A DNA stretch of 54,057 nucleotides from an uncultured Candidatus Saccharibacteria bacterium (lineage in GTDB: Bacteria > Patescibacteriota > Minisyncoccia > HO2-45-28). Made by a program: the position numbers and the translations under genes. This document shows, piece after piece, positions 17,166 to 50,783 of the stretch. Location: assembly GCA_964574495.1 (NCBI GenBank), contig CAZNNT010000002.1, positions 1-54,057 of the forward strand. The letters run 5' to 3'. Numbering within the stretch: the stretch's first letter is position 1; every line of letters begins with the position of its first letter. The notes beneath the pieces were generated by a model, which made no database searches, was not told the DNA's origin, and was given only the letters and a program-made list of their open reading frames with translations.

Positions 17166-17194
17166 CGCCAGCAGATGATGCTGGACTTGGTTGG

Positions 17195-17912: not shown

Positions 17913-17950
17913 GTGAATTTTATTGAATATGTTTCACGTTTTACACGGTT

Positions 17951-18346: not shown

Positions 18347-18386
18347 TTTGTTTCACGTTTTACATTTTTACTTAATTTTCTGTATT

Positions 18387-26433: not shown

Positions 26434-26516
26434 CGGCTGAGTCGGTCGGGCAAAACCCCCCCGCACACACCCTCCGCCGCGCCCTCGCGGGAGGCCAGAA
26501 TTTTTTCGCCGCCAAA

Positions 26517-28133: not shown

Positions 28134-28311
28134 TTCAATAATTCATCAACTGAAACATCAAGCGCATCCGCAAGTTTTTCTAATACGCCGAGGGTGATAT
28201 TTTTCTTGCTGCCCTCAATCTCGCTCATATAGCTTCATCCATCTCTAACTTGCGGCAAATGTCGCCTTGCGTCATTTTACGACGAAACCGTATGCGCTTT
28301 GTCCTAGTTTT
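28130..28311 (-). pseudogene. XRE-family helix-turn-helix gene interrupted by a frameshift
   Basis: The N-terminal part (KRIRFRRKMTQGDICRKLEMDE, stops at 28225) and the C-terminal part (YMSEIEGSKKNITLGVLEKLADALDVSVDELLK, 28130-28228) are in different frames. Together they read like a canonical XRE HTH. The C-terminal ORF stop overlaps the ATG of 26517..28133 (ATGA). Confidence 0.55.
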
Positions 28312-28321
28312 TTGGAAAGTT

Positions 28322-28358
28322 TGGTGCCCCCATCGGGATTCCGCTTCGCTAGAACCCG
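28322..28358 (-). pseudogene. partial tRNA-Glu 3' copy with CCA and a 10-nt insertion in the T loop
   Basis: Minus strand reads CGGGTTC[TAGCGAAGCG]GAATCCCGATGGGGGCACCA. It is identical to the tRNA-Glu T arm and acceptor apart from the bracketed insert. Confidence 0.65.
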
Positions 28359-28460
28359 TCGGCCTTCGGCCTCCCCGGACACCTCTCGGTTTCCGGCGGT
28401 CGCTTTGCTCCCTGCCTTCCTCCTCGGGAAAAACTACAGTTTTTCCCGACCCCTTTTCGC

Positions 28461-28477
28461 GGGTTCGAATCCCGATA
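28461..28477 (+). repeat. inverted 17-nt copy of the tRNA-Glu T arm (CGGGTTCGAATCCCGAT)
   Basis: Identical to the corresponding tRNA-Glu segment but on the opposite strand. Confidence 0.7.
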
Positions 28478-28507
28478 TTGGGTTCGAAAGTGCTCCGCAC
28501 TTTTCAG

Positions 28508-28582
28508 TGCCCCCATCGGGATTCGAACCCGAGTTTCCACATTGAAAGCGTGGCGTCCTAGACCGGACTAGACGATAGGGGC
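28508..28582 (-). tRNA. tRNA-Glu (anticodon UUC), CCA not encoded
   Basis: Acceptor GCCCCTA/TGGGGGC, anticodon arm CCACG-CTTTCAA-TGTGG, T arm TCGGG-TTCGAAT-CCCGA. The 3' flank is CTG. Confidence 0.88.
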
Positions 28583-28608: not shown

Positions 28609-30006
28609 TTGCGTATTATTCAAGTCATTATGTTGGAATTGCGCCGTATTTGGCCGGCTTTAACGATTTTCGGATTTGCTTTTGGCGTGTTTTTCAGGTC
28701 TTTTTTTAACGCGGATTGGCCCGTTGCCCTGTTTATTATGATAACCGGGGTTTTCTTTTTGATTTTCGCTTATTTGAAAGTCGAATATCCAAAGGGAATT
28801 TTCATTTTTCTTGGAATTTTTATCCTGTCCTTCGGTCTGGGCATCTTACGCTACGATATTAAAGATAACGCGCCTGTTTCGCGGGAATTGTTTTTTGCGG
28901 TCGGGCAAAACATCTCGCTTAAGGGTTTTATCAGCGATGAACCGGATGAGCGCGAAAATTCAACCCGCTTGATTTTTAAGGCAACAAGCGGCGATAAAAT
29001 TTTACTGGTTACCAATCGTTATCCCGAATTTTCGTACGGCGATATTCTGGAGATAAGCGGAACGCTGAAAAAGCCGGATAACTTTTCCGATTTTGATTAC
29101 CGCGCTTATTTGGCCAAAGACGATGTTTTTCTTGAGATGGTTTTTCCCGAAATTAAAAAAATAGGATCGGGCTCGGGGTCTATCGTAAAATCAGCGCTTT
29201 TAAAAATTAAAAATGGGTATCTTGAAAATCTATCCCGCGTCTTAACCGAACCGCAGGCCTCGTTTATCGGCGGACTAACGGTGGGAGCAAGAAAATCAAT
29301 GCCGTCCGATATTCTGGAAAACTTCAGAAAAGTCGGAGTCATACATATAGTAGTGCTGTCCGGTTACAACATAACCATAGTCGCCAGGGCTTTCGCCGGC
29401 GCTTTGGGCAGTTTTCTTCCGCGAGTTTTTAGCGCGTCTTTCGGCATCGTCGGCATAATTCTATTCGCGATTATGGCCGGCGCGTCAGCCACGGTGGTGC
29501 GCGCCTCAATTATGGCCGCGATTCTTTATTTAGCCGGAAGCGCCGGACGGGTATATCAGGCCAAAATCGCTTTGTTTGCCGCCGGATTTTTAATGATTTT
29601 GTACAATCCCAAAATTTTGCGTTTTGACCTCGGTTTCCAGCTTTCTTTTTTGGCCGCTTTAGGCCTGATTTATTTATCGCCCTATTTCGCGCGCTTCGTA
29701 AAATGGCTGCCGCAAAGATTTAAAATTCGCGAGTATGCTTTAGCGACGCTGTCGGCGCAAATCGCGGTCTTGCCGGTTCTTCTACAAAACTCCGATTCGC
29801 TTTCATTGTTTTCTCTTCCGGCGAATCTTTTTATCCTGGTCTTGGTTCCGGCTACGATGTTTTTCGGATTTTTATCCGGCGTTTTGGCTTTTGTTCATCC
29901 GTTCATTGCCTACCCATTTTCATGGGTAGCGTATCTGCTCTCGTCTTACGAGCTCGCGGTCGCGAGTTTTTTTGCCAACCTCCCGTTTTCCTCAATAAAT
30001 CTTTAG
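28609..30006 (+). CDS. comEC: ComEC/Rec2 DNA internalisation channel, DUF4131 (OB) plus competence TM domains only
   Basis: 465 aa. N-terminal TMs, an OB-like soluble insert (ISLKGFISDEPDERENSTRLIF...GDILEISGTLKKP), then a multi-TM competence domain (GVIHIVVLSGYNITIV). It lacks the MBL domain. Confidence 0.85.
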   Translation: MRIIQVIMLELRRIWPALTIFGFAFGVFFRSFFNADWPVALFIMITGVFFLIFAYLKVEYPKGIFIFLGIFILSFGLGILRYDIKDNAPVSRELFFAVGQNISLKGFISDEPDERENSTRLIFKATSGDKILLVTNRYPEFSYGDILEISGTLKKPDNFSDFDYRAYLAKDDVFLEMVFPEIKKIGSGSGSIVKSALLKIKNGYLENLSRVLTEPQASFIGGLTVGARKSMPSDILENFRKVGVIHIVVLSGYNITIVARAFAGALGSFLPRVFSASFGIVGIILFAIMAGASATVVRASIMAAILYLAGSAGRVYQAKIALFAAGFLMILYNPKILRFDLGFQLSFLAALGLIYLSPYFARFVKWLPQRFKIREYALATLSAQIAVLPVLLQNSDSLSLFSLPANLFILVLVPATMFFGFLSGVLAFVHPFIAYPFSWVAYLLSSYELAVASFFANLPFSSINL

Positions 30007-30017
30007 CGCAAAAATAT

Positions 30018-30046
30018 TTGACAAAAAATATTTTTTTTGCTATACA
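30018..30046 (+). promoter_or_regulatory. sigma70-type promoter (TTGACA-17 nt-TATACA with upstream TG) at the left edge of the island
   Basis: -35 at 30018-30023, -10 at 30041-30046. Confidence 0.6.
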
Positions 30047-30129
30047 TCTTTTGAAGGTAAAGGCCCGCGGCTCGGGGCTGCGGGTGTGGCAAGTTCGTTG
30101 ATTTTTACATCAAAGGAGGAAGAAGTCAG

Positions 30130-31857
30130 ATGAGGAAGTGGATGTCGGCTCTTTATGCTCTCGGTGTTTTGGTTCTGGCTTCTGCTGTTTCGGCCGCTAC
30201 GGCCCGTTACATTGACGCTCCGCCCATGTCAAAGGTTGTGAATGTTCCTGTGGGTGAAGTGAAGAGGTCCGACACCGTTCAGGTTCCGCTTATCACTTGG
30301 GGCGGAGACATCGCCACGATTTACGGCAATGGAAACGCGCGCTTGACCGTGAAAGGAAGCATTTTTGACAAGCTGGGACTCAAGCTGAAGCTGGTGCGTG
30401 AAGATGACTTCACCAAACAGCTGGCTTCTTTTCAGCGGGGCGATTCGCCCTATCTTCGCGGCACCCTGGGTATGATTAATATGGCTCTTGAAGCCGCGTC
30501 CAAAGATTCCAGAACGAAGCCAGTCGTCATTTACCAGATGACGTGGTCCGTCGGCGGAGACGCCCTCGTAGTCAAAGAAGGCATCAAAACGCCTAAGGAT
30601 TTGAAAGGAAAAACAATCGCCGTTCAGGCCTACGGTCCGCACCCGGATTATCTGGCCAACATTTTGGCCGCAGCCGGTCTTTCAATGAAGGATGTTACGG
30701 TCAAGTGGACCAAGGAGCTGACCGGAAAAGATAACACTCCTGTTTCGGCTTTCAAGAACGACAGTTCGGTTCATGCCGCAATGGTCATCAGTCCGGACGC
30801 TATGGCTCTGACTTCTGGCGGCAAAGTCGGCACCGGCTCCGAGGATTCGGTCCGCGGCGCCAGAATCATGCTCACAACCAAAACCGCGAGCAAGATTATT
30901 GCCGATGTTTACGCCGTTCGCGCGGACTATCTGAAAGCGAACCGCGACAAGGTGGAAAAATTTGTGCGTGGGCTTATGCTCGCTGAAGAAGAGCTCCGCA
31001 AAGTTTTCCAGAACAAATCCTCTTCGCCGGTCGCTTATAAGCAGATGATTTCGGCCGCCGCGGACATTCTTCTTGACAGTCCGCAGGCCGTGAGCGATGC
31101 CGAAGGCCTTTATGCCGACGCGGAATACGTAGGTTATAAGGGCAACGTGAAGTTTTTCGGCGACCCGAACTATCCGCGAAACATGGACAAGCTGACTGGC
31201 GAAATTCAAGACGCGTTCACTCCGCTCGGCCTTTTGAGCGCGAAAGTCGCCCTTGACCACGCTCGCTGGGATTACAACCGGCTGAAAGAAGGCCTGGTCG
31301 ACACGGCCGGCGTTGAAGCGCCCCGTTTCGTTGAGGCCGAGGTCGCCAAGATTGTCACCAAGAAACAGCAGCAGGGCACGCTCGCCGAGGGTCAGCTCTT
31401 CTCGTTTGAGGTCCATTTCCTACCCAACAAGAAAATTTTTACTGCAGATCTTTTTGCTGACGCTTTCAAAAAAGCCGTGAAATTTGCGGCCACTTACGGA
31501 GGAGCGGTCATTACTGTTGAGGGACACGGCGATCCTCTTGGTTATCTGAATGCCAAGAACTCGGGAGTCCCGCGGGTTAAGCTCGAGGAGATCAGACAAG
31601 GCAATAAAAATTTGAGTTTAAACCGCGCTAACGCTGTTCGTGACGAATTGATTGGTTTTGCAAAGAAAAACGGCGTCAGTCTGGATGCCAGCCAGTTTGT
31701 AACTGTTGGCCACGGTTTCGCGCAAGCGAAAACCGGAATGTGCGGCGAAGACCCCTGCAGGCCGAAAACAAAGCAGGAGTGGCTCGATAATATGCGTGTT
31801 GTTTTCAGAATCATCCAAGTCGAAACCGAAGCCTCCGTCTTCAACCCGGTTCAGTAA
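30130..31857 (+). CDS. secreted fusion: NMT1/SsuA-type substrate-binding domain plus C-terminal OmpA-like peptidoglycan-binding domain
   Basis: Signal peptide (ALGVLVLASAVSAATA). SBP-like core (SVGGDALVVKEGIKTPKDLKGKTIAV). OmpA_C-like tail (ITVEGHGDP...NLSLNRANAVRDEL...TVGHGF...NMRVVFRIIQVE). Confidence 0.75.
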   Translation: MRKWMSALYALGVLVLASAVSAATARYIDAPPMSKVVNVPVGEVKRSDTVQVPLITWGGDIATIYGNGNARLTVKGSIFDKLGLKLKLVREDDFTKQLASFQRGDSPYLRGTLGMINMALEAASKDSRTKPVVIYQMTWSVGGDALVVKEGIKTPKDLKGKTIAVQAYGPHPDYLANILAAAGLSMKDVTVKWTKELTGKDNTPVSAFKNDSSVHAAMVISPDAMALTSGGKVGTGSEDSVRGARIMLTTKTASKIIADVYAVRADYLKANRDKVEKFVRGLMLAEEELRKVFQNKSSSPVAYKQMISAAADILLDSPQAVSDAEGLYADAEYVGYKGNVKFFGDPNYPRNMDKLTGEIQDAFTPLGLLSAKVALDHARWDYNRLKEGLVDTAGVEAPRFVEAEVAKIVTKKQQQGTLAEGQLFSFEVHFLPNKKIFTADLFADAFKKAVKFAATYGGAVITVEGHGDPLGYLNAKNSGVPRVKLEEIRQGNKNLSLNRANAVRDELIGFAKKNGVSLDASQFVTVGHGFAQAKTGMCGEDPCRPKTKQEWLDNMRVVFRIIQVETEASVFNPVQ

Positions 31858-31868
31858 GGAGATTGGCG

Positions 31869-32669
31869 ATGACGGGGACAACAAAAACAAAGGGAGCGAT
31901 TTTTACTTTTCTTTTGGCGATAGCGTTTTTTGTTGCCGGTTGCGATTCCAGTAACACTCCACAGGAGACCACAAAAAAGGTTGAAGCGGTTAAAAATGGA
32001 TCTGTTCCTCCTCGTTACACCAGCTCTGTTTGGCCTCCAACGGGTCCGAAGGACGAAAAGCTTGTTTTGGCCCAAAATCCGCTTGCCAAGAATTATCTTG
32101 TCGTTCTTGATGGATCAGGGAGCATGGATGGGAGGAGTTGTTCCGGTAAAGATTCAAAAATTGTCGCTGCGAAGAAAGCCCTGCAGCAATGGTCCACGAC
32201 TGTTCCAGCTAACGCTAATCTTGGTCTCGTTATTTTTGACAATAACGGCATTACCGAACGGGTCGCCATGGGTAATGGCCCCGCTAACCGGAAGAATTTT
32301 GCCGATAGTGTTGAAAAGGCCTATGCTTCGGGCGGAACGCCTCTGCATAACGCGGTTCTTCTGGGATATAAACTTCTTGGCAAACAGGCGCGTAAGCAAA
32401 GAGGCTATGGCGAGTACCATCTCGTGGTCGTTACCGACGGCGAGGCGAATGGCGGCCAGGATCCGTCAAGAGTTGTTTCTGAAATTTTTGCGACTTCACC
32501 TATTACTGTTACCACTATTGGTTTTTGCATCGGAAAAGACCACTCGCTGAACCAGCCCGGGTTTACGGTTTACAAAGAAGCGGGCAACCTCGAAGACCTG
32601 AAAAAGGGCCTGGCCGAAGTTCTTGCCGAGTCGCCAACCTTTGATGTAAAGGATTTCAAGAAAGACTAA
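31869..32669 (+). CDS. vWA-domain lipoprotein (TerY-like)
   Basis: Lipobox FVAGC. Complete MIDAS (LDGSGSMDG, GGTPL, VVTDGEANGG). ATG at 31869 sits 7 nt after AAGGAG (the track ORF starts at TTG 31863). Confidence 0.8.
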   Translation: MTGTTKTKGAIFTFLLAIAFFVAGCDSSNTPQETTKKVEAVKNGSVPPRYTSSVWPPTGPKDEKLVLAQNPLAKNYLVVLDGSGSMDGRSCSGKDSKIVAAKKALQQWSTTVPANANLGLVIFDNNGITERVAMGNGPANRKNFADSVEKAYASGGTPLHNAVLLGYKLLGKQARKQRGYGEYHLVVVTDGEANGGQDPSRVVSEIFATSPITVTTIGFCIGKDHSLNQPGFTVYKEAGNLEDLKKGLAEVLAESPTFDVKDFKKD

Positions 32670-32684
32670 ATAAAGAAATCAAAA

Positions 32685-32713
32685 ATGCCGTTCCGGATAT
32701 ACCGGGACGGCAT
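32685..32713. terminator. bidirectional terminator between convergent vWA and AAA+ genes
   Basis: 12-bp stem ATGCCGTTCCGG / CCGGGACGGCAT with loop ATATA, an A-run upstream and a T-run downstream. Confidence 0.75.
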
Positions 32714-32720
32714 TTCAATT

Positions 32721-34334
32721 TTAAGACATTGTCTGGCGAAGCTGACGTATGTTTAAAATCTCGTCAACATCTCCAAGATAATTCTTCGTGAAGTGAGCCA
32801 GCTCTTCATCATGATTCAAATTAAGATTTTCTTCGCGAGACATATCGCAGGCCTCGATGATGTCTTCTTTGCGAACCCCTCTTTCTTCCGTTGGAGGAGT
32901 GGATGGGTGTTTCAGATCTCTTTGGAGCGCGATGGACGTTGTTTTGTCTACGACGCCTTTAATCATAGCTCCGTTTATGATATGAGCCAGCGTGAATTTT
33001 CTTGTTTCTCCTTTTTTGGCGCCTCCAAGCTCAAAACTGTAAAGGCCATATTTTGCCGACAGAATTTCTTCTGCCGCGAATTCAGCCATTTCTTCGGGAC
33101 TAATACCGCCATGAAGTTTTGTTTTTCCGAAGTTGAGCTTAAAGATTTCGGCGGTTGCGATTCTGTCCGGCCTTTCAACTTCTATTTTTTGGTCAAACCT
33201 TCCGTCTCGCGTTACGGCCGAATCAAGCACATCCGGGCGATTGGTTGCGGCAAGCACCAGAACATCTCCGGTATCAAGCCCGTCCATTTCGGCAAGAAAA
33301 GCGGGGACAATCGTTCGTTCAATATCCGAACTTCTGCCCGTTCCGCGTTTATAAAGAATCGCGTCGCATTCGTCAATAAAAATGATTACGGTGTAGCCGA
33401 GTTTTTTGGAGGCCGATCTCGCGGCGGCAAATATTTGGCGTATCGCGGCCTCTGCCGATCCAACATAGCGGTCAAGAATTTCCGGACCTCTAATATAGAA
33501 AAACACGGGAGATGACCCGAGCTCCTTATGAATTGAAGCGAGTCCTGTTGCCACAGCTTTTCCGAGCATGGTTTTTCCGCACCCGGGAGGTCCGTAAAGA
33601 AGTATGCCCCTCGGCGGCCTTTTGCCGTAAAAGTCAAAAAGATCGCGCCTGCTGTATGGAAGTTCAATCGCTTCAACCAATCGTTCCTTGGTTTTAACAA
33701 GCCCGCCGATATCGTTCCAGGATATATTTGTTTCCTCGGCGAATCTGTAGCGTTCGCCTTCAAGCGCGAGGCGCGAAAGAATGACCGAACCGCTATTATC
33801 AATCAGCACTCTGTCGCCGTCTTCCAGTTGATTCGCGAATTTTCCGTTAACGACAACTCGCGCTTTCCCGCCCCACTCTATTTCGCTCAAGAATGTGTCG
33901 ATTACGCGCTTGACAATAACCGCGTCGCCAAGTTTCGGACTGTTAACCACGTCAATAATCTGCATGGTATGCGGCGAGATTTTCACTATGTCGCCGGGAA
34001 CGATTTGTTTGTTTTTCGGCGCCAAAACTTCAATGACTCTTCCGCCGTGAACGATCAAAATTGACGGCGCGGATTTATCGGCGTTTTCGCCGGCAAGAAT
34101 AACCGGCGCGTGTTCAAGGTGGGGCGAGCTTAGCCGGTCTATCGTTTCTTTTTGTTCGGCTATTTTTTTGTGGGCATCTTCAAGAGCCGTAAAAACTTCT
34201 TTGGTTTTTTCCTCAGTCCATTCTCCGGGTTTGAGTCCGGCGCCGCTCTGAGCGCGCCGAACATACGGCAGAAGGTGCGAAAGTCCGCATTCTTCAAGCA
34301 TCTTTTCAAAACTCCAGTTTTCATTGGCCATCAT
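32721..34334 (-). CDS. ARC/Mpa-type AAA+ ATPase (coiled coil, OB-like region, single AAA module)
   Basis: Closely follows the proteasome-associated ATPase pattern: ISWNDIGGL, PPRGILLYGPPGCGKTMLGKAVA, FFYIRGPEILDRYVGSAE, IIFIDECDAI, KRGTGRSSDIERTIVPAFLAEMDG, ATNRPDVLDSAVTRDGRFD. The N-terminus has a coiled coil and two beta-rich segments. Start at 34334 (GGAG 5 nt upstream); the track ORF extends to 34364. Confidence 0.85.
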   Translation of the reverse strand: MMANENWSFEKMLEECGLSHLLPYVRRAQSGAGLKPGEWTEEKTKEVFTALEDAHKKIAEQKETIDRLSSPHLEHAPVILAGENADKSAPSILIVHGGRVIEVLAPKNKQIVPGDIVKISPHTMQIIDVVNSPKLGDAVIVKRVIDTFLSEIEWGGKARVVVNGKFANQLEDGDRVLIDNSGSVILSRLALEGERYRFAEETNISWNDIGGLVKTKERLVEAIELPYSRRDLFDFYGKRPPRGILLYGPPGCGKTMLGKAVATGLASIHKELGSSPVFFYIRGPEILDRYVGSAEAAIRQIFAAARSASKKLGYTVIIFIDECDAILYKRGTGRSSDIERTIVPAFLAEMDGLDTGDVLVLAATNRPDVLDSAVTRDGRFDQKIEVERPDRIATAEIFKLNFGKTKLHGGISPEEMAEFAAEEILSAKYGLYSFELGGAKKGETRKFTLAHIINGAMIKGVVDKTTSIALQRDLKHPSTPPTEERGVRKEDIIEACDMSREENLNLNHDEELAHFTKNYLGDVDEILNIRQLRQTMS

Positions 34335-34411
34335 ACTCGCTCCTTTTTTGAGGAACACTGACAAACAACTTTCGTAAAGAAGATATTGTATTTTTTATAA
34401 AAAGTCAACCC

Positions 34412-34473
34412 CGTAGTAGAAATCCGACTAATTGCATTTTGGTCGCAGAGCGACCCGTCGGATTTTCACTACG
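34412..34473. promoter_or_regulatory. 17-bp imperfect inverted repeat with a nested hairpin in the divergent AAA+/SBP-OmpA control region
   Basis: CGTAGTAGAAATCCGAC (34412-34428) pairs with GTCGGATTTTCACTACG (34457-34473), one mismatch and one G:U. The inner hairpin is GGTCGC-AGA-GCGACC. Confidence 0.6.
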
Positions 34474-34488
34474 TGGTCAAGGTAGCTC

Positions 34489-34518
34489 TTGACAAAAGAG
34501 CCCTTTTGTTGATAGAAT
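34489..34518 (+). promoter_or_regulatory. sigma70-type promoter (TTGACA-18 nt-TAGAAT) for 34573..36141
   Basis: -35 at 34489-34494, -10 at 34513-34518. Confidence 0.55.
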
Positions 34519-34572
34519 TCCGCCAGCAAGGTCGTTGACATTTTTACCAAAAACCAAGAAAAAGGAGGGTCT

Positions 34573-36141
34573 ATGAGCGGCCATGTTAAGGTAGCTATTG
34601 CCGTATTTTTTGTGTTCGTTCTCGCGATTGCCGGCTTTTATTTCGGTGAACCCGTGTGGCAGAATTGGCGCCAGCAAAAAACAAGCGATGCCGGCGCGAC
34701 CAAAGGAAAGATTTCTATCGCGGTTGATAATTGGGTCGGATATTTTCCTCTTTGTTCTCCGCGGATGAAAGTTCACCTGCGAAGGGCGGGTTGGCTTCTT
34801 GACTGTGTTGACGACAAAGCCGATTACGCCTCCAGGATGAAGAACATGAAAGACGGCAAGTATAACTTCGCCGTCGCCACGGTTGATTCGTATATTTTGA
34901 ACGCGGCTTCTCTCGGTTTTCCCGGAGTGATTGTCGCGGTCATTGACGAGTCAAAAGGCGGAGACGCGATTCTTGCCTGGAAAGACAGTGTCGCGAATCT
35001 CGACGATATCAAGGGTAAAAGCGATCTAAGAATAGTTTTTACTCCCAATTCGCCGAGCCATCACTTGATCAAGGCGGTCAAAGAGCATTTCGGCATCCCA
35101 GAAATTTTGCCGTCAGGAAAAAACAAAATTGAGTCGGACGGTTCCGAAGCGGCTCTGAAAACATTTTTAGCGAAGAAGGCGGATGTCGCCGTGCTTTGGG
35201 AGCCCGATGTTACAAGGGCCCTATCTCAAAAAGGAGTTGTTAAACTGCTTGGCACGGAAGACACGAAGCGTTTGATTGTGGACATCCTTTTGGTCAACCG
35301 CCAGTTTTCGTCCGCCAGTCCGGAAGTCACGAAGTTTTTCATCTCAACTTACTTCCGGGTTTTGAAAGAATATCGCGACAGTCCGGACGAGCTTCTAAAG
35401 GACGTCGTAGCTCAGACGAAACTTTCCGAAAGCGCGGTTAAATCCATGCTTAAGGGTGTTTCGTGGGTCAATCTGACTGACAACGCGCAGGAATGGTTCG
35501 GTGTTTCTTTGGACGGAACGCCTTCGGCCGACGGCTTGATAAGCGCGATTGAGTCCACGGTTTCGATTCTTGTCGGCAACAAAGATTTTTCTTCAAATCC
35601 TCTGCCCGCGGGCGATCCGTATCGCATTACGCAAAGCCAGTATGTTCAGGACCTGTTCGGTAAAGGGGTTTCCGGATTTACTGTCGCGGGTGTCCGCGGA
35701 CAAAAAACAGAGGCCGGCGATTCCATCGCGGCTAAATTTCAGCCGCTTTCGGAATCCGCCTGGGCCAATCTTCGCGAGATAGGAAGTTTGAGAATAGCGC
35801 CGATTGTTTTTTCGACCGGCGTTTCCGAGCTGGGTTACGACGCGAAGCTGGAGCTGGACAAGGTCGCGGAAAAACTGAAGCACTATCCCAATTTCCGCAT
35901 TCTTATCAAAGGCCACACCGGCCTTTCGGGCGACAAAGACGAAAATCGCAAACTCTCGCAGGAACGCGCGGAAAGCGTCGCGAGATATTTTGAAGTAACT
36001 TACGGGGTTGACTCAAACCGCGTGCTGGCGGTCGGCAAGGGTTCTGATGAGCCGTTACCGAAGGCGCCCGGCGAATCAAGCCGGGGCCATAACTACCGCC
36101 TGCCGCGAGTCGAAATCCGTCTCGTCTCCGAAGTTTACTAG
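34573..36141 (+). CDS. membrane-anchored fusion: NMT1/SsuA-type substrate-binding-like domain plus C-terminal OmpA-like domain (paralog of 30130..31857)
   Basis: N-terminal TM (VAIAVFFVFVLAIAGFYF). SBP-like core (ESKGGDAILAWKDSVANLDDIKGKSDLRIVF). OmpA-like tail (ILIKGHTGLSGDKDENRKLSQERAESVARYF...AVGKGSDEPL...RLPRVEIRLV). Confidence 0.72.
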   Translation: MSGHVKVAIAVFFVFVLAIAGFYFGEPVWQNWRQQKTSDAGATKGKISIAVDNWVGYFPLCSPRMKVHLRRAGWLLDCVDDKADYASRMKNMKDGKYNFAVATVDSYILNAASLGFPGVIVAVIDESKGGDAILAWKDSVANLDDIKGKSDLRIVFTPNSPSHHLIKAVKEHFGIPEILPSGKNKIESDGSEAALKTFLAKKADVAVLWEPDVTRALSQKGVVKLLGTEDTKRLIVDILLVNRQFSSASPEVTKFFISTYFRVLKEYRDSPDELLKDVVAQTKLSESAVKSMLKGVSWVNLTDNAQEWFGVSLDGTPSADGLISAIESTVSILVGNKDFSSNPLPAGDPYRITQSQYVQDLFGKGVSGFTVAGVRGQKTEAGDSIAAKFQPLSESAWANLREIGSLRIAPIVFSTGVSELGYDAKLELDKVAEKLKHYPNFRILIKGHTGLSGDKDENRKLSQERAESVARYFEVTYGVDSNRVLAVGKGSDEPLPKAPGESSRGHNYRLPRVEIRLVSEVY

Positions 36142-36153
36142 GGGAGCAGGACT

Positions 36154-37044
36154 ATGGGCAGAGACAGTCCGGGAAAGAAAGACGGCGCGAAGCGCCGTCC
36201 CACGACTTCCGACTTTTCAAACGAAGCCGTCGGCAAAGTTGTCCAAAGAGAAATTTTTCAGCACTGGTCGCTTCTTTACCCCGCGGTCATCGCGGCAGCG
36301 GGAGGACTGGGGGCATTTCTTATCAGCCCGTTTCTTTTCGGTATTGTCGCCGCGGGAGGAGCCGGAGCCGCGCTCTTGAGCGTAGGCGTAAACTACTTCC
36401 GCAAAGACGCCATAGCCGATCGCCACATCAAGCGCCTGCTTGAAGAAATGGCGGCATATCGTGAGCGGACTCGAGAAGAACTTCGCGAGGAACTGGCGGA
36501 ATGCCGGACAGTCAAGGGCGGAGAAGGTTACGCCGAACAGGGTGAAGCTCAATTCGCCCAGGTTCAGGACAAGTTTGAAGCATTTATCGGACTTCTGGCT
36601 AAAAAACTTGATCCGGGAGAGCTGACATTCAATCGCTATCTCGGCACAGCGGAACAGCTGTATCTCGCGGTGATGGATAATCTGCGGGACATAGTTAATC
36701 TTTTGAAAAGCGTGGATGCCATTGACATTGATTATATTGCCGAGCGGTTGAAGGCGATGGACAAGATAATGGCGATTTCTAAGAAACGCGGTGAAGGGTC
36801 GCACCAAGCGGACATAGACGAGGTCGTGACCCTTAAGAAAAGCAAGGAGCTGTATTCCAGAAATCTGGAGCTGGTCAACATCCTTCTCACGAAAAACGAG
36901 GAGGCGTTGACCCAGCTTAATGAGGTTACGGCGGCAATCGCGCGCGACATGCGCACAACCGCCGAAGCTAAGGTTGACATGGAAACCGCGCGCCGGCAGT
37001 TGGAAGAACTTGCCAGAAAAGCGCGCGATTATTCAAACCAATAA
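36154..37044 (+). CDS. 2-TM coiled-coil protein, XpaC-like TelA partner
   Basis: Two adjacent TM helices (LLYPAVIAAAGGLGAFLISPFLFGIVAAGGAGAALLSV), then a long helical cytoplasmic region. It sits immediately upstream of the TelA-like gene, as in B. subtilis xpaC-yaaN. The family call rests on architecture and context only. Confidence 0.5.
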   Translation: MGRDSPGKKDGAKRRPTTSDFSNEAVGKVVQREIFQHWSLLYPAVIAAAGGLGAFLISPFLFGIVAAGGAGAALLSVGVNYFRKDAIADRHIKRLLEEMAAYRERTREELREELAECRTVKGGEGYAEQGEAQFAQVQDKFEAFIGLLAKKLDPGELTFNRYLGTAEQLYLAVMDNLRDIVNLLKSVDAIDIDYIAERLKAMDKIMAISKKRGEGSHQADIDEVVTLKKSKELYSRNLELVNILLTKNEEALTQLNEVTAAIARDMRTTAEAKVDMETARRQLEELARKARDYSNQ

Positions 37045-37077
37045 CCGGCCGCCCGAAACCAAGGAGGAGGAAAACAC

Positions 37078-38289
37078 ATGCCGGAACTGATTCAAAAGCA
37101 GCCGACACAAACACCAGTTAGCGATTCGCTTAAGGTTGCCGACGCGGCAGAATTGCGAAAAGAGCTTGACTTGGTTGATCCCGACGCGATAAAGATTGAA
37201 GAAGCCGATGCCGAGCTGGTAAAGCAGGCAGAGCATTATGCCGATCAGTTGGTCAGCATTGATCCCAAGGATTTTAAGGGTCGCGAAGAGAGAAGGGTGG
37301 CGGTTGAAGGCGCGGGGCGCAGGCTTCAGGCCGATCTGGCCGGCAACGCGATGCTTAAGGAGCAGGTTAAGAATCTTGCCCAAAGAGGCGCCGATGGCGG
37401 GGCAGTCGCTAACGCCCTGATGAATCTCAAGATACAGGTTGAAGGCCTTGATCCGCATCAGTGGGACTTTGCTCCAGGATGGTTTTCACGCTTGGTGAGA
37501 GCCACTCCGCTTGCGGGCAAGAAATTACAGCGCTATTTCACCAAGTACGAAAGCGCGCAAACCGTGATTGAGGCAATCATACGTTCGCTTGAGAAGGGGC
37601 GTAACGAGCTGACTCGGGACAATAAAATACTTCTTGAGAGTCAGATTGATATGCGGAAGTCCACGCTCAAGCTTGAGCGGCTTGTCAAATTGCTCCAGCT
37701 TGTGGATAAGAATCTTGAAAAGAAACTTGCCGAAGAGCAGGACCCGGAAAGGCAGAAATTCATCAAAGAAGAACTGCTTTTCACTCTCCGCCAGACCATT
37801 ATGGACCGCCAGCAGGATCTCGCGGTCAATCAGCAGGGCGTTCTGACTTTTGAGATTGTCATAAGAAATAATCGCGAGCTTATCCGTGGAGTGCAAAGAG
37901 CAAATGGCGTAACGATCAGGGCTCTTGATGTCGCCGTTACCACTTGCTTCGCTTTGACCCACCAGCGAATCGTGCTTGATAAGATTACGGCCGTTAATGC
38001 CACCACCTCAAACCTTATTGCCGAGAACGCGCGTCTTCTTAAGACGCAGGGTGTTGAAATTCATAAGCAGTCCTCAAGCGCCATGCTGGAGATGGCAAAG
38101 CTCAAGTCCGCTTTCGCGGATATCCACGCGGCGATGGAAGACGTTTCCCGTTTCCGTATTGAATCGCTTGGCAAGATGGCCAATACCATTCTTGAGCTTG
38201 ATCAGATGACGACCGAAGCCGAGAATAGAATCAAGAAAATGGAAGAAGGGAACCGCGTCGCTCCGGCGATCGCGATTGAGGTTGAGTAA
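37078..38289 (+). CDS. telA: TelA/YaaN family toxic-anion-resistance-like protein
   Basis: 403 aa. Collinear with the B. subtilis YaaN pattern as I remember it (…KYESAQTVIEAIIRSLEKGRNELTRDNKILLE…, …NNRELIRGVQRANGVTIRALDVAV…, …NLIAENARLLKTQGVE…). Confidence 0.8.
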   Translation: MPELIQKQPTQTPVSDSLKVADAAELRKELDLVDPDAIKIEEADAELVKQAEHYADQLVSIDPKDFKGREERRVAVEGAGRRLQADLAGNAMLKEQVKNLAQRGADGGAVANALMNLKIQVEGLDPHQWDFAPGWFSRLVRATPLAGKKLQRYFTKYESAQTVIEAIIRSLEKGRNELTRDNKILLESQIDMRKSTLKLERLVKLLQLVDKNLEKKLAEEQDPERQKFIKEELLFTLRQTIMDRQQDLAVNQQGVLTFEIVIRNNRELIRGVQRANGVTIRALDVAVTTCFALTHQRIVLDKITAVNATTSNLIAENARLLKTQGVEIHKQSSSAMLEMAKLKSAFADIHAAMEDVSRFRIESLGKMANTILELDQMTTEAENRIKKMEEGNRVAPAIAIEVE

Positions 38290-38296
38290 ATTTTCC

Positions 38297-38325
38297 GCCC
38301 GCGGGGCCTCGGAGGCCCCGCGGGC
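38297..38325 (+). other. perfect 12-bp GC stem-loop between telA and the SBP gene
   Basis: GCCCGCGGGGCC-TCGGA-GGCCCCGCGGGC with no T-run. Likely an intra-operon processing or stability element rather than a terminator. Confidence 0.55.
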
Positions 38326-38371
38326 TGATTCAAAAAACGTAACGCCAACCCCGGAAGGAGGAAAACAAGCA

Positions 38372-39433
38372 ATGAAGAAGTTTGCCGCAGCGCTCGTCGT
38401 TTCAGTTTTCGTTTTCGCTGTCGGTCTTGTTTCGCTTGCTGATGCCGCGCCGAAGTTCCGCATCGCGTGGTCGCACTACACCGGCTGGGAGCCGTGGGAG
38501 TACGCGCGTCACGCCGGCATCCTGAAAAAGCACGCCGACAAATACGGAATCGAAATTGAGCTTACCCCGCCGATGGATTACGTGGAATCAATGAACCAGT
38601 ATGGCGCCGGAAAGTTTCATGGCGTCGTGATAACAAACATGGACATACTTGTCGGTCCTTCTGCCGGCGGCGTCGACAGTACGGCTTTCATCGGCGATTT
38701 TTCAAACGGCAACGACGGCATCGTTTTGAAGAACGGAAAGACCGTTTGCGATCTCAGGGGCCGAAAGACGGTTCTTGTTGAGGGTTCCGTTTCGCATTAT
38801 CTTTTGGCGCGAGGGCTTCAGCTTAAGTGTAGCGGTCTTACCGAACGAGATTTCACCGTGGCAAACGTGACTACCGAGACCGATATCAAGCCCGCTTTTA
38901 TTGGAGCCCCGAACGCGGCTGCGGTAACCTGGAACCCCATCCTTATGGATTTGAGGTATGGAAAAGGCGTGAAGATGGTTTTTGACTCGTCTCAAATTCC
39001 GGGCGAGATCATTGACATGATGGTCGTCCGGACGGACGCTCCGGACTCGCTCAAGAAGGCGCTTGTCGGCGCTTGGTACGAGACGATGAAGGTCATGTCC
39101 GGACGCGGCAGTTCGGCTAAGACCGCTCTGGAATACATGGCCAAGTTTTCGGGCGGAACGCTGGAACAATTCAAGGCCCAGCTTAGCACCACGGCCATGT
39201 TCTACGATCCCGCGCAGGCAGTCGCTTTCGCAAAGAGCAATCAGCTCAAGCGGACGATGGAGCTTGTGCGCACGGTTTCTTTTGAGAAGGGATTCTTCGG
39301 GAAAAACGCCAAGTCCAAGGACGACGTCGGGATTCAGTTCCCGGACGGCTCAGTCATGGGCAACCCAGCGAACGTCAAACTGCGTTTTGACGCGAAGTTC
39401 ATGCAGATGGCCGCCGAGGGCAAGTTAAACTAA
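38372..39433 (+). CDS. ABC transporter substrate-binding protein, NitT/TauT (NMT1/SsuA-like) family
   Basis: Signal peptide MKKFAAALVVSVFVFAVGLVSLADA after RBS GGAGG. The SBP core is paralogous to the two OmpA fusions. The track ORF start at 38276 is an upstream read-through. Confidence 0.8.
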   Translation: MKKFAAALVVSVFVFAVGLVSLADAAPKFRIAWSHYTGWEPWEYARHAGILKKHADKYGIEIELTPPMDYVESMNQYGAGKFHGVVITNMDILVGPSAGGVDSTAFIGDFSNGNDGIVLKNGKTVCDLRGRKTVLVEGSVSHYLLARGLQLKCSGLTERDFTVANVTTETDIKPAFIGAPNAAAVTWNPILMDLRYGKGVKMVFDSSQIPGEIIDMMVVRTDAPDSLKKALVGAWYETMKVMSGRGSSAKTALEYMAKFSGGTLEQFKAQLSTTAMFYDPAQAVAFAKSNQLKRTMELVRTVSFEKGFFGKNAKSKDDVGIQFPDGSVMGNPANVKLRFDAKFMQMAAEGKLN

Positions 39434-39456
39434 TTGTTCTTTATACGAATTTTATG

Positions 39457-39490
39457 CCGGTTACGCTGACGCGTAGCCGGTATTTCATTT
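39457..39490 (+). terminator. hairpin/partial terminator between the SBP and permease genes
   Basis: 10-bp stem CCGGTTACGC / GCGTAGCCGG, then TATTTCATTT. This is typical attenuation after an ABC SBP gene. Confidence 0.5.
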
Positions 39491-39568
39491 GACAGAATTA
39501 ATTTTTTATGATAGTTTTGTGGGGGAATTTCAAAGGCCTTTGAAAACACAAAAAAGAGGAGAACTCTT

Positions 39569-40393
39569 ATGCGAATACCCAGATTTTGGGGAATTCATGC
39601 CGAGCCGACAAAAACAACGAATTGGACCCTTGCCGTTTTGCCGTTCATAATTTTCATCACGCTTTATCTTCTTGGTTCATATTTGCGTTTGCAAGTTGAC
39701 GCTCAAGATAGGCTTTTGCCGTCAGTATCAAAAATGATTTACACGATGAAAGATATGATTTTTGTTGAAGATATCCGCAGCGGAAATTATCTTTTTTTGG
39801 CTGACACCGTTTCAAGTTTAAGACGTATAACAATCGGCATGTCGCTTTCCGGTCTGGCCGGCCTGCTTCTTGGCATAAACATGGGGCTTTTTCCCGGACT
39901 AAGGGCGCTGATGCTGGCTTTAGTTACCTTCGCTTCAATCATTCCTCCTCTTGCTATTATGCCCATACTTCTTGTGGTTTTCGGAATTGATGAGCTGGCA
40001 AAGGTGGTGCTGATTTTCATCGGGACTTTTTTCTTGATTACCCGCGACATTTATAATGCAACGGAAAAAATTCCGAAAGAGCAAGTGGTTAAAGCGCTTA
40101 CTCTGGGCGCTTCACAGCTCGAGGTGGTTTATAAGGTGGTTATGCCGCAGATTATGCCGAGACTGATTGACGCAATTCGGCTTTCTCTGGGATCCGCGTG
40201 GCTTTTTCTGATAGCGGCGGAAGTAATCGCCTCAACCGAAGGCCTGGGGTATCGCATATTCTTGATGAGACGCTACATGACGATGGACATCATCATTCCT
40301 TATGTCTTGTGGATCACTTTCCTCGGTTTTGTAATGGATTGGTCGCTTCGCTTCCTGATTTCCCGGAGGTACTCATGGTATCAAGCGAAGTAA
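39569..40393 (+). CDS. ABC transporter permease, NitT/TauT family
   Basis: 274 aa, six TM segments, with an EAA-like loop region (ALTLGASQLEVVYKVVMPQIMPRL). Confidence 0.9.
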   Translation: MRIPRFWGIHAEPTKTTNWTLAVLPFIIFITLYLLGSYLRLQVDAQDRLLPSVSKMIYTMKDMIFVEDIRSGNYLFLADTVSSLRRITIGMSLSGLAGLLLGINMGLFPGLRALMLALVTFASIIPPLAIMPILLVVFGIDELAKVVLIFIGTFFLITRDIYNATEKIPKEQVVKALTLGASQLEVVYKVVMPQIMPRLIDAIRLSLGSAWLFLIAAEVIASTEGLGYRIFLMRRYMTMDIIIPYVLWITFLGFVMDWSLRFLISRRYSWYQAK

Positions 40394-41292
40394 TCATGAA
40401 GGATCCGAATATAATTTTGTTCATGAGAGACGTTTACAAGGCCTATGGCCCCAAAATGGTTCTGGATAACGTTGATCTCGCTGTTGAGCGCGGAGAGTTT
40501 TGCACAATTGTCGGTCCTTCCGGATGCGGTAAATCAACTTTTCTGCGTCTGATTTTGGGCCAGGAACGCCCAACATCAGGAGCAATTTTAATTGATGGCG
40601 AGCCCGCCGGCGGACCGAACGCGGAGCGCGGAATAGTTTATCAGAAATATTCCCTTTTTCCTCACCTCTCTGTTCTGCAAAACATTCTTTTGGGTAAAAG
40701 ACTAAGCGCGGATTGTTTTGAATGGTTCAAGCGCAAAAAAGAATTTCGCGATGAGGTTATGTCTTACCTTGAACGCATGAGGCTTAGTGAAAGTGTTGAC
40801 AAGTATCCTCACGAACTTTCGGGCGGGATGCAGCAGCGCGTGGCTATCGCGCAGTCGCTCGTGATGAAGCCGAAGATACTTTTGATGGACGAGCCGTTTG
40901 GGGCGCTGGACCCCGGCACCAGAGAAGAAATGCAGGTTTTTTTGCTGGAGCTTTGGGAAGAGTATGGTATGACGATATTTTTTGTTACCCACGATTTGGA
41001 AGAAGCGGTATTTCTTGGAACAAGAATCGTGGCCATTTCCCAGTTTTATTCCGACGACCGCGGAGACGGTCCTGACGTAAGGCGCGGGGCAAAAATTGTA
41101 TGCGATTACGCTTTGCCAAAGGAAGCGCAAAACACCGCGGTGAAAGAGACGGCCGAAATAGGGCGTTTGATTCAGCAGATCAGGCGCGAGGCGTTTGATC
41201 CGGCTCATTTACAGCACGCCTTGAATTTTAATCTTAAACATCCCAGCTCTTTCCAGGATTTGACGCCTGAAGAAATACAAAAGCATGTTTGA
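40375..41292 (+). CDS. ABC transporter ATP-binding protein, NitT/TauT family
   Basis: Walker A GPSGCGKST, signature LSGGMQQRVAIA, Walker B LLMDEPFGALD, H-loop VTHD. Start at 40375 (GGAGG 5 nt upstream, overlaps the permease end). The track ORF from 40198 is an alternative-frame extension. Confidence 0.9.
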   Translation: MVSSEVIMKDPNIILFMRDVYKAYGPKMVLDNVDLAVERGEFCTIVGPSGCGKSTFLRLILGQERPTSGAILIDGEPAGGPNAERGIVYQKYSLFPHLSVLQNILLGKRLSADCFEWFKRKKEFRDEVMSYLERMRLSESVDKYPHELSGGMQQRVAIAQSLVMKPKILLMDEPFGALDPGTREEMQVFLLELWEEYGMTIFFVTHDLEEAVFLGTRIVAISQFYSDDRGDGPDVRRGAKIVCDYALPKEAQNTAVKETAEIGRLIQQIRREAFDPAHLQHALNFNLKHPSSFQDLTPEEIQKHV

Positions 41293-41298
41293 AATAGT

Positions 41299-41328
41299 CC
41301 CCGACCACGAGTCGGGGCTTTTGTTTTT
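41299..41328 (+). terminator. rho-independent terminator at the right edge of the island
   Basis: CCCCGAC-CACGA-GTCGGGG followed by CTTTTGTTTTT. Confidence 0.8.
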
Positions 41329-41355
41329 AACGGATTACTGGTTTATATATTATGT

Positions 41356-42210
41356 ATGCCCAAATTTTTTGAAAAATACCGGCCGAAGTATATTTTTATA
41401 GGCGCGCTTGCCCTTGCGGCTTTGGTCGTGTGGTCGGCTGTTTTTCATTTTGAAAATGACCGGTTGATGGTCGCTTTTTTAGACGTGGGTCAGGGAGACG
41501 CGATTTTTATTCAATCCCCGGACGGGAATCAGATTTTAATTGACGGCGGGCCGAATAAAGCGGTTCTTTCGCAGTTGTCGCGCGCGATGCCTTTTTACGA
41601 CCGCTCAATTGACGCGCTGATTTTAACCCATCCGCATCAAGACCACCTTAGCGGCTTGGTTGAAGTATTGGAAAAATATGATATTGATTTGATTTTAAGT
41701 TCGGGGGACAGCGCCCCCACTGCCGAATACGCCAAATGGTCAAAATTGATTGAAGAAAAAGGAATAAAATCGGTTTTAGTAAGGAGAGGAACGCGCCTTA
41801 ATTTGGGCGGCGGCGTTTATTTTGACGCACTTTTGCCGGATGTTTTCACGGATACGGAAAATCAGCATCAAAATATGGTTGTCGGACGTCTGACTTACGG
41901 CGATATTTGTTTTTTGCTGATGGGAGATGCCGAACGCGAGCAAGAATTTAAAATTTTGCGGGACGATATTGATTGCGAGGTCTTGAAGGTCGGGCATCAC
42001 GGCTCAAAAACATCAAGTGGCGAAGCGTTTTTAAAAAAGGTTTCGCCGAATATCGCGATTATTCAGGTCGGCGAAAAAAATCGCTATGGCCATCCGTATG
42101 GGGCCGTGCTGGAGCGGCTCGCCGCCGTCTCGGCGAAAGTTTTTCGCGCCGATTCAGACGGCGCGATAATTATGGAAAGCGACGGAAAAAATATAAATAT
42201 CGTATATTGA
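41356..42210 (+). CDS. ComEC-type metallo-beta-lactamase domain protein with an N-terminal TM anchor
   Basis: TM (YIFIGALALAALVVWSAVF), then FLDVGQGDAIFIQSPDGNQILIDGGP, LILTHPHQDHLSG and KVGHHGSKTSS. This is the C-terminal module of full-length ComEC. Confidence 0.85.
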   Translation: MPKFFEKYRPKYIFIGALALAALVVWSAVFHFENDRLMVAFLDVGQGDAIFIQSPDGNQILIDGGPNKAVLSQLSRAMPFYDRSIDALILTHPHQDHLSGLVEVLEKYDIDLILSSGDSAPTAEYAKWSKLIEEKGIKSVLVRRGTRLNLGGGVYFDALLPDVFTDTENQHQNMVVGRLTYGDICFLLMGDAEREQEFKILRDDIDCEVLKVGHHGSKTSSGEAFLKKVSPNIAIIQVGEKNRYGHPYGAVLERLAAVSAKVFRADSDGAIIMESDGKNINIVY

Positions 42211-46706: not shown

Positions 46707-46722
46707 ATCTTAATTTTATATC

Positions 46723-48096: not shown

Positions 48097-48097
48097 A

Positions 48098-48616
48098 TCA
48101 GTAGCTTCCTCTTAAAACGGCGCTGGCGTAAAAAGCGCGGCTCGCTGAATTTTTTCCGGAAGACGCGGTTAAAGAAAAAGATATCTTCAGGCCCTCCGAA
48201 TGATTCGCGGTAATTTTTTCAATCCTGAATAAATCAACGGCGGTTTTGTCGGAGGTTAAAAACTCTTCCGGGCCGCTGTCTGTTTTTATAACCAAACGGT
48301 TTCCGGACAAGTAAAATTCTTTCACTACCGCGGTCGGATCGGATGCGTCGCGGACCGTGTTTAAAACGAGGCGAGAAGAATCGGAACTCAATTGGCTTGA
48401 AGCGTCAACGTTTCCGGCCATTCGGATTTCGCGCGTCATTCTTTCAAGGCCGTTTTCGGCGTCCAAAGAAAGGCGGCGAAGAACTTTCGCTTGAGAATAA
48501 GCCGAAAACATGGCCAAAACCGTATTTATGACTAAAACCAAAATAACGGCTAAAATGGCGATATATATCACCCCCTCAATCAGTCCCATTCCTTTTTGAT
48601 TTATCGGCATAGGCAT
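48098..48616 (-). CDS. type IV minor pilin/pseudopilin
   Basis: Prepilin-type leader KG|MGLIEGVIYIAILAVIL with Glu at +5. Confidence 0.7.
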   Translation of the reverse strand: MPMPINQKGMGLIEGVIYIAILAVILVLVINTVLAMFSAYSQAKVLRRLSLDAENGLERMTREIRMAGNVDASSQLSSDSSRLVLNTVRDASDPTAVVKEFYLSGNRLVIKTDSGPEEFLTSDKTAVDLFRIEKITANHSEGLKISFSLTASSGKNSASRAFYASAVLRGSY

Positions 48617-49558: not shown

Positions 49559-49561
49559 AAG

Positions 49562-50773: not shown

Positions 50774-50783
50774 GCGGATTCCT

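Follow-up and report, generated by a model that had tools for sequence, protein, structure and literature searches.

We analysed a window of 54,057 nucleotides from an uncultured Candidatus Saccharibacteria bacterium (the whole stretch studied: positions 1 to 54,057 of contig CAZNNT010000002.1, assembly GCA_964574495.1). At positions 30130–41292 the window carries a block of genes for substrate-binding proteins (SBPs), a vWA lipoprotein, a TelA protein with a two-transmembrane (2-TM) neighbour, an ABC importer and an AAA+ ATPase. Eight of these genes form a fixed-order cassette that is widespread and highly conserved, and the block is the version of it found in the Candidate Phyla Radiation (CPR). 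As the first-pass annotation of this DNA had proposed, the listing of open reading frames (ORFs) together with profile searches gave nine contiguous ORFs, eight on the plus strand and one on the minus strand. The features of the block and of its two borders are given below in window coordinates, with the basis of each in brackets.

28609–30006, plus strand: ComEC membrane module with DUF4131 and Competence domains, without a metallo-beta-lactamase (MBL) domain (Pfam PF03772, 144 bits; PF13567, 65 bits)
30018–30046, plus strand: promoter-like TTGACA-17-TATACA with TG before the –10 element (direct sequence reading)
30130–31857, plus strand: gene 1, secreted SBP of the NMT1/SsuA type with a C-terminal OmpA-like domain, 575 aa (Pfam)
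31863–32669, plus strand: gene 2, vWA lipoprotein with a complete MIDAS site (PF00092, 45.9 bits; lipobox VAGC)
32721–34331, minus strand: PAN/ARC-like classic AAA+ unfoldase, 536 aa, divergent (PF00004, 118.8 bits)
34489–34518, plus strand: internal promoter-like TTGACA-18-TAGAAT, TG-extended (promoter scan, 11/12)
34573–36141, plus strand: gene 3, membrane-anchored SBP fused to a peptidoglycan-binding OmpA domain, 522 aa (OmpA, 58.6 bits)
36154–37044, plus strand: gene 4, 2-TM hairpin with a cytoplasmic helical bundle, 296 aa (outside Pfam)
37078–38289, plus strand: gene 5, TelA (toxic anion resistance family), cytoplasmic (PF05816, 196.1 bits)
38294–38328, no strand: 17-bp inverted repeat, 94% complementary, between the telA stop and the SBP start (repeat search)
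38372–39433, plus strand: gene 6, SBP of the ABC importer, TIGR03427 type (TIGR03427, 443.4 bits)
39454–39483, plus strand: 13-bp stem-loop (13 pairs) between the SBP and permease genes (terminator-like match in scan)
39569–40393, plus strand: gene 7, ABC permease, TauC/SsuC-like (PF00528, 74 bits; best NCBIfam match TauC)
40396–41292, plus strand: gene 8, ABC ATPase (PF00005, 119 bits)
41299–41317, plus strand: intrinsic terminator, 7-bp stem with 6 G-C pairs and a T-tract (scan)
41356–42210, plus strand: stand-alone ComEC-type MBL gene (PF00753, Lactamase_B, 57.9 bits)

The conservation of the cassette was followed in a genome-collection scan that gave 216 confirmed loci. Of these, 80 were kept and, with three loci from earlier look-ups, make up the 83 on which the counts are based. 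Counts come from tblastn of the window proteins and from independent ORF clustering, and many of the loci end at contig edges; L-numbers (L004, L005 and so on) are the numbered loci of this analysis. The order is SBP-OmpA-like protein, vWA/MIDAS lipoprotein, SBP-OmpA protein, 2-TM coiled-coil protein, TelA, TIGR03427-type SBP, permease and ATPase, and it is almost always identical across the 83 loci. Gene 3 (SBP-OmpA2) was found at 83/83 loci, the vWA gene at 78/83, gene 1 (SBP-OmpA1) and the 2-TM gene at 74/83 each, and telA at 61/83, with the importer SBP, permease and ATPase at 53, 51 and 46 of the 83, respectively. The kept loci belong to several CPR lineages and to Desulfobacterota (among them cable bacteria, Desulfosarcina variabilis and Desulfogranum japonicum), Gammaproteobacteria, Burkholderiales (Betaproteobacteria), Elusimicrobiota and Nitrospirota. 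All eight genes, in an identical order but with no AAA+ gene, are present in one Desulfobacter and one Parcubacteria genome, and identity of the operon proteins across phyla is about 50–60%. These data support the earlier suggestion that the genes form one module, in that dozens of unrelated genomes carry eight of the nine together and in an unchanged order.

The triad of gene 1, the vWA gene and gene 3 is the most conserved layer of the cassette and is able to occur alone, as at L171 (the same locus as L016) and L078. The 2-TM gene is present without telA at seven loci, and at some cable-bacteria loci the importer is not nearby. Vibrio megaplasmids of 240–320 kb also carry the operon, with the ABC ATPase gene shifted to the front (L170, Vibrio rotiferianus pAM7, NZ_AP019800.1 181174–189958). 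The names given to these plasmid copies by the NCBI annotation pipeline (PGAP) are OmpA family protein, vWA domain-containing protein, hypothetical protein and toxic anion resistance protein.

Additional genes accompany the operon at some loci. A radical-SAM protein of ~340 aa related to the archaeosine synthase RaSEA (TIGR01210, 107 bits against a cutoff of 212) is encoded beside or inside the operon at 16 loci (for example L001 16580–17596 and L004 15264–16253). Its carriers are Desulfobacterota, cable bacteria and some CPR, whereas the window lacks it. At L005 (Sungbacteria; also L095) a second mini-module at 14658–18398 lies between the operon and the MBL gene and encodes a 286-aa protein of unknown family, a 596-aa SBP_bac_11-vWA fusion and a 301-aa paralogue of the 2-TM protein. 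L005 also has a PPK2 gene between the AAA+ gene and gene 1.

The triad proteins are predicted to be tethered to peptidoglycan. The signal peptide, lipobox, transmembrane (TM) anchor and 2-TM hairpin of the operon proteins are visible both in the sequences and in AlphaFold2 (AF2) models. In gene 3 the OmpA domain scored 58.6 bits against a cutoff of 27.2, and the NxxLSxxRAxxV motif is invariant in the gene 3 alignment. Gene 3 has more than 1200 homologues, the best 120 of which cover at least 95% of the query and, leaving aside close relatives, are 52–60% identical to it; across phyla identity is 47–60%, and over 100 alignment columns are invariant. The AF2 model of gene 3 (pLDDT 85) has a TM helix at residues 3–37 followed by an SBP fold and then the OmpA domain. 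The SBP fold in this model is nearest to TauA (6ssy, with 2-aminoethylphosphonate) and SsuA, with template-modelling scores of 0.79–0.81. Gene 1, the orthologues of which are 53–67% identical (74/83 loci), matched NMT1 with 37 bits; its OmpA-like region reached 19.7 bits, which is under the 27.2 cutoff, although the NxxLSxxRAxxV-type motif NKNLSLNRANAV is present. With this reservation about gene 1, the OmpA and SBP assignments of the first-pass annotation hold with Pfam and NCBIfam profiles. The vWA lipoprotein had been called MIDAS-complete, and PF00092 (45.9 bits), the metal residues and the VAGC lipobox agree with this; DxSGS (DGSGS in the window), TPL and VTDG are kept in at least 90% of 68 homologues. 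The partners of vWA proteins in TerY-P triads, a PP2C phosphatase and a Ser/Thr kinase, do not adjoin the vWA gene in the window and were not seen among the recurrent neighbour families.

Gene 3 resembles MotB/Pal/TssL-type anchors in having an N-terminal TM anchor and a C-terminal OmpA_C domain with a peptidoglycan-binding motif. The difference is that in gene 3 a complete type-II periplasmic-binding-protein domain separates the anchor from the OmpA domain, and that the operon has no MotA/TolQ-like partner. The SBP-vWA fusion of L005 hints that the binding-protein and vWA parts of the triad may interact physically.

The TelA assignment is firm, as PF05816 scored 196.1 bits against a cutoff of 30 over residues 79–386, and the window protein is 37–69% identical to orthologues across phyla. 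Gene 4 is always located between gene 3 and telA, and its family comprises 794 representative clusters at E≤1e-10. This 2-TM protein had been described as XpaC-like. That description was not upheld: PF10112 (XpaC/Halogen_Hydrol) gave no match at E≤1 in gene 4 or in any of 36 family members, and what is alike is just the architecture (two TM segments plus helices) and the adjacency to telA. Searches of gene 4 against Pfam, NCBIfam and PDB gave zero matches, and a profile–profile comparison found no relation between the gene 4 family and TelA. The AF2 model of gene 4 is all-helical (pLDDT 74), and a fold search with this model returned only BAR/ClyA-like helical bundles at non-significant levels (best E=0.075). 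PDB sequence searches with the TelA and 2-TM profiles gave nothing significant.

As in the xpaC-telA (yaaN) pair of Firmicutes, telA here comes right after a gene for a small 2-TM membrane protein with a helical cytoplasmic part. By contrast with that pair, the two genes here sit inside a far larger envelope operon and the 2-TM protein lacks PF10112 homology. In Enterococcus faecium, TelA and its membrane partner influence membrane lipid architecture and daptomycin binding, and the effect of XpaC on daptomycin binding and phospholipid domains requires intact TelA (PMC6811118). Because of this report, and because of the shared architecture and adjacency, the 2-TM/TelA pair may be a functional analogue of xpaC-telA.

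Genes 6–8 match the SBP, permease and ATPase families of NitT/TauT importers (such as TauABC, SsuABC and the TIGR03427 transporters) in Pfam and NCBIfam. The gene 6 SBP scored 443.4 bits with TIGR03427, above the equivalog cutoff of 333.9, and the PGAP label of its Vibrio orthologue is "putative urea ABC transporter substrate-binding protein". What defines TIGR03427 is its association with urea/guanidine carboxylase genes. Unlike in those systems, there are no linked carboxylase or catabolic genes here, and two further SBP domains are fused to OmpA-like anchors instead of serving a transporter. With Rfam, no riboswitch, guanidine riboswitches included, was detected in the island or in six orthologous loci.

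One explanation of the whole block is pure nutrient scavenging. The importer would then be the core, the SBP-OmpA proteins and the vWA lipoprotein would concentrate a scarce solute (a sulfonate, a phosphonate, urea or a guanidine-like compound), and the TelA/2-TM pair would be accessory or regulatory. This would fit with the complete importer in most full-length loci, the gene 6 score above the TIGR03427 cutoff, the likeness of the SBP-OmpA fold to TauA bound to 2-aminoethylphosphonate and Phosphonate-bd matches in some homologues; CPR organisms also depend on scavenging. However, the triad is kept without a nearby importer in several long contigs, the importer genes are the least consistently linked layer, cross-phylum identity of 50–60% is unusually high for simple binding proteins and no riboswitch or catabolic genes lie alongside the operon. 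We regard scavenging by itself as unlikely.

The AAA+ gene has a different history from the other eight genes. It occupies the same slot, divergent and between the vWA gene and gene 3, in the window, L004/L084–86, L087/88 and L102, and lies just upstream of the operon in L005/L095 and L048. Thus, no fewer than five distinct CPR genomes, with differing flanks, carry the CPR AAA+ as part of the operon, and the window type is missing from almost all non-CPR loci. A gene-neighbourhood check for co-occurrence proposed earlier therefore had a divided outcome: the AAA+ recurs in one CPR clade but is not part of the universal module. In that clade, the sequences indicate that a PAN/ARC-like AAA+ gene was inserted between genes 2 and 3, probably with a new promoter for the downstream genes. 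The internal promoter-like site at 34489–34518 is located just downstream of the insertion and ahead of genes 3–8, and it is stronger than the site at 30018–30046. The closest homologues of the window AAA+ (46–82% identity, 520–536 aa) are all of the operon-embedded CPR type, and a more distant 664-aa relative has an unrelated mobile context. An exact look-up of the 547-aa AAA+ ORF gave no match because the called gene starts at a downstream ATG (536 aa).

The AAA+ protein had been annotated as an orphan ARC/Mpa-type ATPase. TIGR03689 (ARC/Mpa) is its best NCBIfam match, covering residues 52–527, but the score of 302.9 bits is far under the cutoff of 504.75. Walker A (GPPGCGKT), Walker B (VIIFIDE) and the aromatic pore loop (RYVG) are kept in all of its CPR orthologues. 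The HbYX/GQYL docking tail is missing from the window protein and from the CPR orthologues, which end in ...RQLRQTMS or ...KLKQTMK, and no proteasome or Pup genes were found among the scanned window ORFs or in the CPR loci examined. A single-sequence search with the N-terminal 200 residues gave no significant PDB match; the ARC-like call for this N-domain comes from the TIGR03689 alignment span and from PF16450 (proteasomal-ATPase OB domain) in some family members. Like ARC/Mpa and PAN unfoldases, the window AAA+ is of the classic clade and has an N-terminal helical segment and a beta-rich region; it differs from them in its place in an envelope operon, the lack of a docking motif and the sub-cutoff score. 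It is thus best described as PAN/ARC-like in predicted architecture, not as a demonstrable ARC/Mpa member, and rather than an orphan it is a stable ninth gene of one CPR clade.

A second classic AAA+ type of ~492 aa, with the Walker A sequence GVQGCGKS, is encoded within 2.4 kb of the operon at no fewer than 13 non-CPR loci. Its hosts are Desulfobacterota, Gammaproteobacteria, Burkholderiales and Elusimicrobiota, and the gene is found on either side and either strand. It is only 30% identical to the window AAA+ over the ATPase core. Yet another AAA+ gene lies upstream of the operon in L172. AAA+ proteins thus seem to have been recruited to the operon twice independently, which is our best evidence that an unfoldase acts together with it. 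The ~492-aa protein (for example L009 5842–7320) has an uncharacterised N-terminal domain of ~220 aa.

Together, these results identify the block as the CPR (Parcubacteria/Sungbacteria-like) version of a conserved eight-gene envelope operon composed of the triad, the 2-TM/TelA pair and a NitT/TauT importer. Our best guess, to which we give a probability of roughly 50%, is that its products form a ligand-binding scaffold that is tethered to the wall and coupled both to the ABC importer and to a membrane module with TelA. According to this model, the wall-tethered SBP domains, with folds nearest to TauA and SsuA, would bind a small polar or anionic solute and the vWA lipoprotein would bridge the SBP-OmpA proteins via its metal site. 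The scaffold could feed or gate the dedicated ABC importer. It could also signal across the membrane to the 2-TM/TelA pair, tuning membrane or envelope homeostasis as xpaC-telA does in Firmicutes. Where present, the AAA+ would remodel or reset a cytoplasmic component, most plausibly the helical TelA/2-TM assembly.

Several observations count against this interpretation. Gene 4 has no detectable homology to XpaC or TelA. The three SBP domains, which had been called paralogous, are so detectably but only distantly (23% identity, E=2e-4). Because the triad is also found where TelA or the importer is missing, obligatory coupling is not established, and L078 has an AAA+ gene with the triad only, which is a poor fit to a TelA-specific client. 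No urea/guanidine carboxylase or allophanate hydrolase genes were recurrent among the neighbours at 89 loci. In addition, an incomplete literature search found no experimental test of any component in any host.

A more specific form of the envelope-operon model can be proposed. Here, ligand occupancy of the wall-tethered SBPs, bridged through the MIDAS site, would control the TelA/2-TM assembly, and AAA+ proteins recruited independently in CPR and in diderms would disassemble or reset it. We consider this unlikely. If true, it would be a bacterial counterpart of polymer-plus-AAA+ membrane maintenance such as ESCRT-III/Vps4, and TelA would gain its long-missing biochemical role.

The block had also been read as a possible conflict module. 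If it were an anti-phage system, envelope sensors would detect invasion and trigger a TelA/2-TM membrane effector, with the AAA+ as a switch. Resistance to phage and colicins has been associated with TelA and Ter genes, conflict systems often include vWA and AAA+ proteins, the operon is present on Vibrio plasmids and the AAA+ has weak IetA/TRIP13 matches in PADLOC via its ATPase domain. These PADLOC matches are, however, limited to generic similarity of AAA (IetA/TRIP13) and OmpA (ZorB) domains and give the reading no support. The proteins are very conserved and their trees largely taxonomic, and defence genes usually turn over fast; the neighbours are housekeeping genes rather than defence islands. 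Given the poor fit with 50–60% cross-phylum identity, a role in conflict appears very unlikely.

The position of the block between a ComEC gene without an MBL domain (28609–30006) and a stand-alone MBL gene (41356–42210) was confirmed with Pfam. A metagenome scan with the ComEC N-terminal module gave 80 related loci, and at 53 of them both ComEC genes were found and could be set against each other. All 32 relatives with N-terminal identity of at least 32.3% have ComEC divided over two adjacent genes, with nothing detected between the two genes in 27 of these; of 21 more distant relatives, 19 have a single fused ORF. The window MBL gene is homologous to the C-terminal domain of the fused ComEC of these more distant relatives. 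We thus rejected the possibility that the island split comEC: the split predates the island because it is found in all 32 closer relatives, even where the gap is empty, and the gap holds other cargo elsewhere. The suggested comparison with sister loci therefore shows that the separation is ancestral in this clade, with an empty gap in most relatives and unrelated genes in others.

The comEC gap holds the operon in the window, L005/L095 and L102. It holds unrelated genes in L113 (3862–5238, a 458-aa unknown protein) and L104 (11530–12120, a VTT/DedA-like membrane protein), and thus acts as a site that has received cargo repeatedly. In L090, the closest ComEC relative (52% identity), the gap is empty. 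A neighbour-joining (NJ) tree, which has no support values, places the lineages with the island in two distinct ComEC clades, so that either a permissive site took up the operon more than once or the operon was lost several times. Further CPR copies are located elsewhere, beside iPGM/TrmB or TGT/VIT1 genes. The iPGM and RNase Y genes are ~18 kb from the operon in the window (8959–12163) and directly beside it in L084 (15821–20075, Parcubacteria GW2011_GWA2_42_14), an arrangement that is a remnant of shared synteny and favours a Parcubacteria/Sungbacteria-like origin of the window.

This location raises the idea that the block is an accessory of DNA uptake, placed between the ComEC parts because it works with the competence machinery. 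The same wedge position recurs in the window, L005/L095 and L102, and a type IV pilus cluster is near in the window. Against this, the operon mostly lies far from comEC, in other CPR genomes too, the gap holds unrelated genes in L113 and L104, and ComEC is split even with nothing inserted. The proposal is highly improbable and largely refuted.

We also compared the composition of the block with that of its flanks. The island genes have a GC content of 50.4% versus 45.4% in the flanks (Mann–Whitney p=0.002), and GC at third codon positions (GC3) is 55.2% versus 48.5% (p=0.03). More use of G/C-ending codons had been noted by eye. This is clearly true of AAG (0.49 vs 0.22, with TTA at 0.03 vs 0.18), slightly so of CTC and GTC, and fits with the modest GC and GC3 differences, but there is no enrichment of GCC (0.36 vs 0.40) or GAC (0.54 vs 0.52). 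Across hosts, operon GC follows host GC from 39 to 63% and is 1–6 points above the flanks in 12 of 14 genomes, including the window. Because 12 of the 14 hosts share it, the GC excess is a general property of the operon and carries no mark of recent acquisition; as a sign of recent transfer it was rejected.

A repeat search found no direct repeats at the island borders, where no integrase or transposase was found either, and there is no recombinase within the block. Taxonomy is largely reproduced in the NJ trees of genes 1 and 3, where the CPR copies (the window, L048, L004, L087, L005 and L002) form one clade. The first-pass annotation had suggested horizontal acquisition of the module. It was right about mobility, since the operon occupies varied chromosomal sites in CPR and is present on Vibrio megaplasmids, but there is no sign of recent acquisition. 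Because of these plasmid copies and variable chromosomal sites, the operon appears to be mobile over long timescales.

Upstream of gene 1, TTGACA (30018–30023) and TATACA (30041–30046), with TGc ahead, are present where a near-consensus promoter had been reported. However, the –10 element matches the consensus in only four of six positions and lacks the final T, with the result that the site was not listed by the consensus scan. The clean terminator reported after the block was detected by the scan at 41299–41317 with its T-tract. The true starts are likely to be 38372 for the SBP gene, 40396 (ATG) for the ABC ATPase gene and 34331 for the AAA+ gene; gene 8 orthologues are 294–302 aa long. The hairpins at 38294–38328 and 39454–39483 may serve in attenuation or transcript processing and thereby set the ratios of the subunits, and it is plausible that the second is an attenuator that raises the SBP relative to the permease.

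Other features of the window lie outside the block. Upstream of comEC are a XerC-type integrase gene (25522–26433), a minus-strand gene of low GC (36.5%) for a 538-aa protein with AAA_18 and QueC-like domains (26517–28133) and a minus-strand tRNA-Glu gene (28507–28582), with a perfect 17-nt inverted copy of its T-arm at 28460–28476. The region 25522–28582 could represent a small element that has integrated, or a tRNA fragment that integration left behind. Downstream, a type IV pilus cluster at 45585–52535 includes genes for PilM (45585–46706), PilC/T2SSF (49562–50773) and PilB/T2SSE (50784–52535) and is followed by a histidine kinase gene (52946–53905). The pilus cluster and comEC fit with a natural-competence apparatus typical of CPR.

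Part of this picture had reportedly been foreseen. In 2012, Anantharaman, Iyer and Aravind are reported to have predicted computationally, in Mol Biosyst, membrane-associated TelA/TerB sensory complexes, possibly with periplasmic-binding-protein-II (PBP-II) and OmpA domains. The core association of TelA with PBP-II and OmpA domains would thus already stand as a computational prediction. We know of no mention in that work of the fixed eight-gene order, the triad of a vWA and two SBP-OmpA proteins, the TIGR03427 importer or the twice-independent recruitment of AAA+ proteins. What appears to be added here is the eight-gene architecture, the triad core, the dual AAA+ recruitment, the CPR variant and the location in the comEC gap.

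The locus reveals no new kind of genetic element. To our knowledge, no mechanism has been established for TelA, which for decades has remained an orphan under the label of a "tellurite resistance" protein. Its place in a fixed cross-phylum operon with a clear topology gives a concrete system in which to look for the role of TelA and for the solute of the wall-tethered SBPs. Culturable hosts carry the operon, including Desulfosarcina, Desulfogranum and, on plasmids, the genetically tractable Vibrio. For CPR biology, the block provides what appears to be a PAN/ARC-like unfoldase outside any proteasome context and shows that the split-comEC gap is a site for cargo.

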